DNA of 64,000 nt from Eledone cirrhosa (lineage: Eukaryota). The DNA is taken from assembly GCA_964016885.1 (NCBI GenBank), contig OZ024743.1, positions 202,926,001-202,990,000 on the forward strand, written 5' to 3'. The notes under the pieces were generated by a model. That model searched no databases. It was given only the letters and a program-made list of their open reading frames with translations, and had not been told where the DNA came from. Both the position numbers and the translations under genes were made by a program. Within the stretch, counting starts at the first letter, position 1. The number at the start of each line of letters is the position of its first letter. This document shows positions 49,032 to 51,572 of this stretch, in pieces.

Positions 49032-49987
49032 TAGGAGAACTTTTAATATTGTAATTCATTTAACCAACGAAAACACTAACGATTGTCAAATACACCAAAT
49101 AAAGCCTAAAGTAAGAAAATATCAATTTTACATGGATGACCGGACTACGTTTCCTAATTATTTAAAAGCGCAATTATCGCCCTACAATAGATTTTATAAT
49201 ATCCAATCAGCTAACGCGCTAAAAACAAGTCCGCAAATTTTTATTGATAAAATATGTTACTATCACTGAGAAAGCAGCTTATACTTATGTCAATAATAAA
49301 GATAACATCTACAATACGGCACGATGAAGTGAAGAATTAAAACAAATAAGAAACTAAATGACCCAAACATTAAAAGGACGGAAACACTATTCAATAGAAA
49401 CCAACTATGTAAAATATAAAGAGCTAACAAAACGTTCAAAAGACAAATAAAACAAGGCGAAATATTATTTCTGGTCTAGCTAAACTGGAGCTCATGAGCA
49501 ATATATGAAGCAGACATAACACAATGCCCCCCCCCCCAAAAAAAAAAAATCAAGAGCTATATATATATATAGAGATAGAGAGCTATATATATATATAATC
49601 AAGAGCTATATATATATATATGTATATGTATATATATATATATATTTTATATATATATATATATATATATATATATATATATATTTTATATATATATATA
49701 TATATATATATATATATATATATATATATATATATATATATATATATATATATATATATATATATATATATATATATGTATGTATGTATACGTACATACA
49801 TATATGTATACAGACGTACAGTAGTATGTATATGTATACATACATGCACACATATATATATGCACGTATCGGTTTATCGAAGATTTATTATAATGCACGG
49901 TTTGTTTGTAAACAAACAAACAGCCCGAATTATGCCGTACAGTGTTTAGGCAACCACGTCACCTTTTTGTTCAACACTGATACAGGA

Positions 49988-50030
49988 ACGATGTACTCGT
50001 TTCAAGCTTATTAGCTATCGTCAGCATCGT
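49988..50030 (-). ncRNA. Hammerhead in the inverted unit
   Basis: ACGAUG-CUGACGA-UAGCU AAUA AGCUU-GAAA-CGAG-UA^CAUCGU. Confidence 0.82.
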
Positions 50031-50405
50031 ATACCTTCCAGCCAGATGGTTGAACGTCTGAAAGTATATACTTTCCTTATGCATATTAACGGCTTCATAA
50101 ACGGAGCATTATAATAAATCTTCGGTAAATGATACGTGCATATATACATGTGCATGTATGTATATATACACATACTACTGTACGTCTGTATACATATATG
50201 TATGTACGTATACATACATACTTACATTTAAGTAACTGCCGTACTAAGAGTGAGAAATGAAATTTCATTTCTTCTATTCCATTTATCGTTTTCGGTGCGC
50301 CCGGCCTACTAAACTCACTCGATATGCCAATTAGGCTGCTCGGCCGTTAATATGCATAAGGAAAGTATATAATTTCAGACGTTCAACCATCTGGCTGGAA
50401 GGTAT

Positions 50406-50448
50406 ACGATGCTGACGATAGCTAATAAGCTTGAAACTAGTACATCGT
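50406..50448 (+). ncRNA. Minimal type I hammerhead (intact core)
   Basis: ACGAUG-CUGACGA-UAGCU AAUA AGCUU-GAAA-CUAG-UA^CAUCGU; perfect 6-bp stem I. Confidence 0.87.
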
Positions 50449-50842
50449 TCCTGTGTCAATGTTGAACAAAAAGGTGACATGGTTGCCTAAACACTATACG
50501 GCATAATTCGGGCTGTTTGTTTGTTTACAAACAAACCGAGCATTATAATAAATGTTCGGTAAACCGATACGTGCATATATATATGTGTGCATGTATGTAT
50601 ATATATACATACTACTGTACGTCAGTATGCATATATGTATGTACGTATACATACATACTTACATTTAAGTAACTGCCTTACTAAGAGTGAGAAATGAAAA
50701 TTCGTTTCTTCTATTCCATTTATCGTTTTCGGTGCGCCCGGCCGTCTACACTCACTCGATATGCAAATTAGGCTGCTGAGCCGTTAATATGCATAAGGAA
50801 AGTATACACTTTCAGACGTTCGACCGTATGACAGGAAGCTAT

Positions 50843-50885
50843 ACGATTCTGACGATAGCTAATAAGCTTGAAACGAGTACATCGT
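50843..50885 (+). ncRNA. Hammerhead with a stem I mismatch next to the core
   Basis: ACGAUU-CUGACGA-...-GAAA-CGAG-UA^CAUCGU. Confidence 0.75.
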
Positions 50886-51572
50886 TCCTGTGTCAGTGTT
50901 GAACAAAAAGGGGACGTGGTTGCCTAAACACTGTGCGGCATAATTCGGGCTGTTTGTTTACAAACAAACCGAGCATTATAATAAATGTTCGGTAAACCGA
51001 TACGTGCATATATATATGTGTGCATGTATGTATATATATATATACATACTACTGTATGTCTGTATACATATATGTATGTACGTATACATACATACATACT
51101 TACATTTAAGTAACTGCCGTACTAAGAGTGAGAAATGAAATTTCGTTTCTTCTATTTCATTTATAAATATATATATATATATATATGTATGTATGTATAT
51201 ATATATATATATATGTATGTGGGTGTATATATATATATATATATATATATATATATATATATATATATATATATATATATATATGTGTGTGTGTTTGTGT
51301 CTATATTGTATCTGTATTATTTTTGACCGCAGGTCAGTCAATGGCAACATTGAGGACCGAGTAAGTTAGATCGCAGATATAAAAGACGAGAAGCGAAAAC
51401 CAACCAAACAGTGAGTGTGTTCTGTTATTAATTCTGGCAATATTACGCAAATATGACCCTCCCCAAATATAACAATATATATATATATATATACATATAT
51501 ATATAATAATAATAATAATAATAATAATAATAATAATCATAATAATAATAATAATAATAATAATAATAATAA

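Follow-up and report, generated by a model that had tools for sequence, protein, structure and literature searches.

A dispersed hammerhead repeat of Eledone cirrhosa is a likely non-autonomous retrozyme mobilised by a Penelope-like enzyme

We analysed a hammerhead-bearing repeat of Eledone cirrhosa (genome size 3.0 Gb), starting from a window of 64,000 nucleotides, the whole stretch 202926001-202990000 of OZ024743.1. We consider it highly likely that this repeat is a non-LTR retrozyme, a non-autonomous element mobilised in trans by a Penelope-like reverse transcriptase-endonuclease. The locus at 49778-51164 of the window is a single insertion of this dispersed repeat of about 437 bp, and 437 bp is also the repeat period measured there. 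From left to right, it consists of (TA)n, an inverted arm, a junction, a truncated piece, two units, the 63-nt start of a next unit and again (TA)n. The original prediction of an inverted unit followed by direct units at 49775..51165 is borne out by this layout (arm 49778-50093, units 50224-50660 and 50661-51101). The features of the locus are as follows.

49558-49777, no strand: (TA)n target or flank, left side
49778-50093, minus strand: inverted arm, unit positions 120-435; its outer end is the first fixed end (E1), without a tail
49988-50030, minus strand: type I hammerhead copy with intact core and stems I and II, helix III palindrome lost; predicted cut 49994/49993
50094-50098, no strand: head-to-head junction with 4-5 untemplated bases
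50099-50223, plus strand: direct piece, 5'-truncated, unit positions 310-437
50224-50660, plus strand: full unit 1, 437 bp
50324-50331, plus strand: octamer position in unit 1, disrupted by a private change at 50328
50365-50371, plus strand: TATA-like stretch, at a similar position in related lineages; putative promoter element
50406-50448, plus strand: type I hammerhead, intact; predicted cut 50442/50443
50535-50560, plus strand: downstream hairpin of 10 bp with two-sided changes between subfamilies; z -7.3
50661-51101, plus strand: full unit 2, 92% identical to unit 1
50761-50768, plus strand: intact octamer ATGCAAAT, 88 nt 5' of the core
50843-50885, plus strand: damaged hammerhead copy, stem I closing pair broken at 50848 and palindrome lost
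51102-51164, plus strand: tail, the first 63 nt of a further unit, stopping at the second fixed end
51165-51284, no strand: (TA)n target or flank, right side

We found no real ORF of at least 120 aa across locus 49778-51164. Lack of coding capacity, tandem units of a few hundred bp and one type I hammerhead in each unit are all features of non-LTR retrozymes. The private variants of the inverted arm form a mosaic: it has some in common with unit 1, others with unit 2 and others with the truncated piece, which suggests gene conversion inside the locus.

The three hammerhead copies have cores starting at 50412 (+), 50849 (+) and 50024 (-), and the motif is of type I, with the core elements CUGANGA, GAAA and UH around three helices and helix I open. 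In the copy at 50406-50448, stem I has 6 bp, stem II has 4 bp with a U-U at its base, and helix III is short with a palindromic loop. Relative to the hammerhead at 1308-1350, three changes had been described, and we find all of them in both 50406-50448 (+) and 50030-49988 (-): T to C at N7, AAGA to AATA in loop II, and one stem I pair from G-U to A-U. They are subfamily differences, not peculiar to this locus. The accompanying statement that substitutions spare the hammerhead structure holds for these subfamily changes but not for the copy at 50843-50885, where a G to T change at 50848 disrupts the closing pair of stem I and alters the predicted fold, nor for the helix III palindrome, which is absent in two of the three copies. 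Constrained dimer folding gives -20.2 kcal/mol for two intact copies versus -12.5 for the locus's own pair. Locus 49778-51164 is an ordinary copy undergoing decay.

Two Rfam scans returned no hammerhead, one among its 8 matches and the other among the matches listed (150 of 302); the matches are microRNA models, driven by TA content. The hammerhead identification therefore rests on core motifs, stems and covariation. The ribozyme region alone folds no better than shuffles (z -0.5 to -1.5), and the repeat monomer folds well below them (z -7.2), with a large share contributed by a TA-rich hairpin.

The three loci in the window represent three subfamilies, A at 49778-51164 and two others:

1067-2757, plus strand: subfamily B locus, with a short inverted piece (1067-1129), three units and a tail
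63822-64000, no strand: start of a subfamily C locus, which continues beyond the window

The third locus, predicted from 63845, is indeed present and starts at about 63822; followed past the window end, it comprises a short inverted arm and one full unit. Among 123 full units, divergence is 2-3.5% within and 12-19% between subfamilies A-C. Using a pattern made of stem I and the first core letters, we counted 26,274 A-C units genome-wide, equally on both strands, against 1 for the reversed control. Sampling 69 evenly spaced 10-kb stretches gave 11 A-C-type loci, which corresponds to about 48,000 genome-wide (95% range 24,000-85,000). Lineage D has about 69-70% identity to A (E-value 1e-30) and lineage E has 63% identity to D (E-value 2e-17), while lineages G and H were found by profile (E-values 6e-11 and weaker). 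Each of the seven lineages matches many contigs (best 40 candidates scored per search). Such numerous dispersed copies are a feature of non-LTR retrozymes and, with the unit count and its control, support the dispersed mobile family that had been proposed from the sequence. The family is not confined to a few long arrays as a local satellite would be, and long arrays are its minority form. Tandem arrays of more than 20 units lie at C28:29.326-29.346 Mb (subfamily C/A, L134-L135) and C1:5.738-5.752 Mb (lineage G), so dispersed and satellite-like forms coexist. In the window, a decayed lineage H member with octamer, TATA-like stretch and hammerhead lies at 60655-60770 (-), its core at 60665.

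We interrogated selection on the ribozyme in an alignment of one unit per locus with majority states (29 A, 26 B, 29 C and 20 D; two divergent extra units excluded). Among A-C only, 0 of 11 core positions and 50 of 288 flanking positions vary (P=0.13), and the close-subfamily comparison behind the original prediction therefore proves little. Once lineage D is added, the core is better conserved than the flanks (0/11 against 96/273 variable, P=0.0097), in agreement with the predicted selection on ribozyme function. In the same A-D set, 10 of 22 stem positions are variable, yet 11 of 11 pairs are kept. The 12 ribozyme pairs are 98.7% paired in 26 sequences, versus 22-41% for slid controls; a shuffle test of this pairing is inflated by the relatedness of the sequences. 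Two-sided changes occur in five of the 12 pairs, four of them on the branch to lineage D, so that independent compensatory events are few, most two-sided changes coming from one deep branch. Unaided, RNAalifold predicts both stem I and stem II and, beyond them, an extended stem I together with a downstream hairpin that has two-sided changes of its own. At its variable pair, stem I has U-U in 284 of the 26,274 units.

The core is kept in all seven lineages while the stems differ. Six of the seven have a four-base palindrome as helix III loop, with three different sequences among them; lineage E has a longer helix III instead. Since the core is invariant across rewritten stems and the palindrome is kept in three sequences, cleavage as a dimer appears to matter. 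Dimeric hammerhead cleavage is described in the available text of PMC4209133, and the palindromic loops would fit cleavage of that kind.

At the level of single copies, the picture is one of decay. Private changes affect 6 of 1,143 core positions (0.52%) and 328 of 30,630 flanking positions (1.07%), a difference that is not significant (P=0.08), and we thus make no claim of copy-level selection. Intact subfamily A copies number 21 of 29. The contigs of one sequencing sample have 36 places with variation at 5% or more; 4 of these are in the ribozyme and 0 in the core. Inserted copies decay, and selection acts on the source lineages, not on locus 49778-51164. It also extends past the ribozyme to the extended stem I, the downstream hairpin, the octamer and the tail.

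The mode of insertion was examined in a census of 90 loci, 84 of them independent. Among the independent loci, 40 are head to head, 42 have a single orientation in the mapped part (some of these carry short arms inside the TA-rich part) and 2 are of other form. Inner ends vary. Outer ends occupy two fixed points: E1, close to the boundary of the unit, and the tail end, which lies about 56-60 nt beyond it. Exactly one arm, which may be either, carries the tail at 36 of the 40 head-to-head loci, neither arm at 2 and both at 0, with 2 not assigned; compared with an independent choice for each arm, this pattern has P=2.7e-9. Lineage G follows the same pattern in 6 of 7 resolved loci. Tail ends enter (TA)n in 65 of 69 cases. 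The repeat thus has the characteristics of Penelope-like insertions: a partial tandem with an inverted 5'-truncated copy, an optional one-sided 3' tail and a (TA)n bias.

Junctions and flanks were also inspected. At the 40 head-to-head junctions, we found an overlap of at least 2 bases in 10, a blunt or 1-base joint in 7 and inserted bases in 23, some of the last owing to incomplete mapping. Target-site duplications, scored at 12 of 39 loci, did not exceed the control (mean 8.4, maximum 14), in a test swamped by TA flanks; clear single cases are L067, L073 and L077. No sample contig joined across the L067 insertion, a result uninformative on empty sites. At L010, L058 and L218, flanking host DNA is duplicated in inverted form, either on the opposite side of the insertion or at its 5' junction, which suggests that target DNA was copied during insertion. 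At L184, a lineage E copy lies within a Penelope-like reverse transcriptase frame, and, judged by eye, there seems to be a duplication of about 15 bp.

The original prediction also held that this locus, like the first, has hammerheads on both strands. They are indeed on both strands at 49778-51164, but at loci 1 and 3 the inverted pieces are too short to hold a ribozyme. Among head-to-head loci, 19 of 40 have ribozymes on both strands, whenever the arm is long enough. Such a distribution would be shared by a viroid-like replicon with ribozymes in both polarities, an account we regard as extremely improbable: the antisense strand of a unit contains no core motif, the ribozyme on the minus strand is the sense motif in an inverted copy, and arms shorter than the distance to the ribozyme hold none. 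Ribozymes on both strands are therefore a by-product of the arms being inverted copies.

The inverted arms at many loci also resemble the terminal inverted repeats of a MITE-like non-autonomous DNA transposon, and the LINE-like fragments adjoining locus 49778-51164 could point to a SINE moved by a LINE. We give this pair of explanations very little credence. For the former, 42 of the 84 loci are in single orientation as mapped, arm lengths are variable and the two ends are unequal, unlike fixed, equal terminal inverted repeats. For the latter, the search for a tRNA gene found none, and there is no poly(A) end. Equally hard to credit is satellite or minisatellite spread at the DNA level, by unequal exchange or rolling-circle DNA with the ribozyme incidental. 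The arrays at C28:29.33 Mb and C1:5.74 Mb, each longer than 20 units, are what it would produce, but most loci are short and variably 5'-truncated with fixed 3' ends and one-sided tails, and RNA pairing is compensated between lineages. For dispersed loci it is contradicted, and it stands only for the secondary growth of long arrays.

Mobilisation by a Penelope-like enzyme would proceed along the following lines. The putative internal octamer/TATA-like promoter of one unit may drive read-through into the following units, and two hammerheads would then pair via the palindromic helix III and cut the multimer to monomers. Circularisation may follow, as it does for the retrozymes of coral, mussel and axolotl. 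A Penelope protein could bind hairpins near the 3' ends and cut both strands of AT-rich DNA; priming of one strand would use the first end, and that of the other the tail end, about 60 nt beyond. Joined head to head, two 5'-truncated cDNAs would leave an inverted arm, a partial tandem and one tail. Inserted copies would thereafter decay neutrally, with only the source lineages remaining selected. The available portions of PMC8557442 and PMC3846280 describe Penelope-like elements (PLEs) as having partial tandems with an inverted copy alongside and, often at one end, a tail. According to the accessible text of PMC11167929, one such protein, in purified form, cuts both strands, extends them and starts from two internal sites that delimit the tail.

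We see a real, though not the leading, possibility that Penelope-type mobilisation instead uses linear read-through multimers, no circles being formed and the hammerhead acting as a transcript trimmer or as a passenger kept for its own sake. In the portion of PMC11167929 available, ribozyme mutants of one purified PLE were not impaired in insertion in vitro, and two-site internal priming did not require cleavage there. Moreover, units differ within a locus about as much as between loci, a pattern equally compatible with a homogeneous multimer and with a circle, which does not separate the two templates. Against this reading, the core is invariant in seven lineages with rewritten stems, the palindrome is kept in three sequences, and circles have been demonstrated for three other animal retrozymes (PMC7229834, in the text available).

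As a possible source of the enzyme, we identified a young family with intact 821-aa frames, of which 150 scored copies are at 96-100% identity. We take the 821-aa protein to carry reverse transcriptase and endonuclease motifs; its Atlas cluster neighbours carry RVT_1 or GIY-YIG on part of the members, while Pfam and PDB searches gave no name for the PLE proteins. The element inserts in (TA)n and forms head-to-head arms, and all 3 head-to-head copies that we read carry a tail of ~90 nt on the inverted arm alone. At one locus (L132:1417-4580, C10:51.99 Mb), a subfamily C arm lies head to head with a 5'-truncated copy of the 821-aa element. The two partners are 17 nt apart, both outer ends lie in (TA)n, and there is no repeat remainder beyond. 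This chimera is the only one among all loci examined, and it could alternatively be a later insertion with deletion. We found no clear sequence shared between the repeat and either the 821-aa family or an older PLE family. A profile search of 1.43 Mb revealed no autonomous element sharing the repeat sequence, and the search for a partner was likewise negative in PLE remnants of the window and loci and in eight unusual octamer-core loci. Since the chimera is single and clear shared sequence was not found, the 821-aa element is a candidate helper only.

The repeat and the autonomous elements differ in the octamer. ATGCAAAT is kept 80-100 nt upstream of the core in all seven lineages, with the TATA-like stretch further on. 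Genome-wide, the octamer plus core pattern gives 35,799 matches versus 12 for the control. The two Penelope-like, autonomous-type families that we checked carry other ribozymes and lack the octamer. An octamer is a component of the snRNA-type promoter of newt satellite 2. At second hand, that satellite is described as using an internal promoter of snRNA type (PMC2220036, in part). The octamer and the TATA-like stretch form a putative promoter. A bacterial promoter scan found nothing; its model is bacterial and not applicable here.

Taking these observations further, we tentatively propose a superfamily of at least seven lineages that would combine its own octamer-type (snRNA-like) promoter with a borrowed, non-homologous Penelope enzyme, obligately priming two cut strands at two fixed RNA sites. 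The one-tail rule would then report paired priming as it happens in vivo, and the chimera would name the 821-aa element as helper. We put this forward as a conjecture with somewhat less than even prospects.

The window and the loci contain further elements. Three broken Penelope-like remnants lie at 17565-18367 (-), 25888-27054 (+) and 29647-30777 (-), and hammerhead-like cores accompany such remnants at 17325 (-) and 28958 (-). The genome is rich in such cores, and those of other families occur at 20016 (-), 20325 (+), 60984 (+) and 62534 (-). Gag, protease, reverse transcriptase and integrase frames interrupted by stops or frameshifts occupy 38277-42214 (-) and are presumably LTR-retrotransposon-like. 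To the right of the locus, 51457-58798 (+) holds several broken non-LTR (LINE-like) reverse transcriptase and endonuclease fragments. Several PLE and lineage E copies (L132, L173, L176, L184 and L217) are interrupted by a frequent short interspersed repeat of ~170 bp, often at the same hairpin loop.

The retrozyme class is already known, and the E. cirrhosa family is a further example. Non-LTR retrozymes of animals include newt satellite 2, axolotl HHR_Amex2 and those of mussel and coral (Cervera and de la Pena 2020, PMC7229834, as far as its text was available). In the repeat, as in that account, tandem units measure 150-450 bp, GC content is low, every unit carries a single type I hammerhead, there is no ORF and copies number in the tens of thousands; with HHR_Amex2, the repeat shares the U-U at the base of helix II and a short palindromic helix III. 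The available text, in which the word 'inverted' occurs 0 times, describes neither inverted arms nor tails, and it shows expression and circles, whereas the E. cirrhosa repeat is known from genome sequence. A preprint (10.64898/2026.07.22.740005), in the part available, equates non-LTR retrozymes with non-autonomous PLE derivatives. Its retrozymes are like ours in co-occurring with PLEs, ranging from monomers to long arrays and having PLE machinery proposed for them; its case is made via pLTR homology in Xenopus, and ours via an insertion signature and one chimeric locus. Only 1 of 9 dimers tested in that preprint was cleaved in vitro, which calls for caution with the cleavage predicted here.

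Comparison with endonuclease-bearing PLEs rests on the accessible text of PMC8557442, PMC3846280, PMC11167929 and PMC4209133. Shared with them are partial tandems, an adjacent inverted 5'-truncated copy, an often one-ended tail, the (TA)n bias and a type I hammerhead predicted to act as a dimer. In contrast, the repeat has no reverse transcriptase-endonuclease ORF, its ribozyme is canonical, not minimal, its tail is about 56-60 nt against the published 30-40 bp, and its octamer is conserved, unlike in the autonomous PLE families examined in E. cirrhosa. Non-autonomous Chlamys elements such as MRC1 (PMC8557442, in part) are similarly non-coding, with head-to-tail multicopy insertions and a pLTR-like structure. 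They differ in coming from green algae, in mostly having no hammerhead and in their 3' similarity to autonomous partners. Our literature search, which covered main texts with few subscription papers among them, found no report of a one-tail rule or a shared octamer for retrozymes; supplements may list such families.

For the mobility of animal retrozymes and the origin of inverted and tailed Penelope-like insertions, the E. cirrhosa genome offers tens of thousands of insertions, young subfamilies and an intact candidate helper. One tail per inverted insertion is a sharp rule that any mechanism must explain, and the ribozyme is kept by selection in vivo, though dispensable for insertion in one in vitro study. 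The family makes both PLE priming and retrozyme mobilisation testable.
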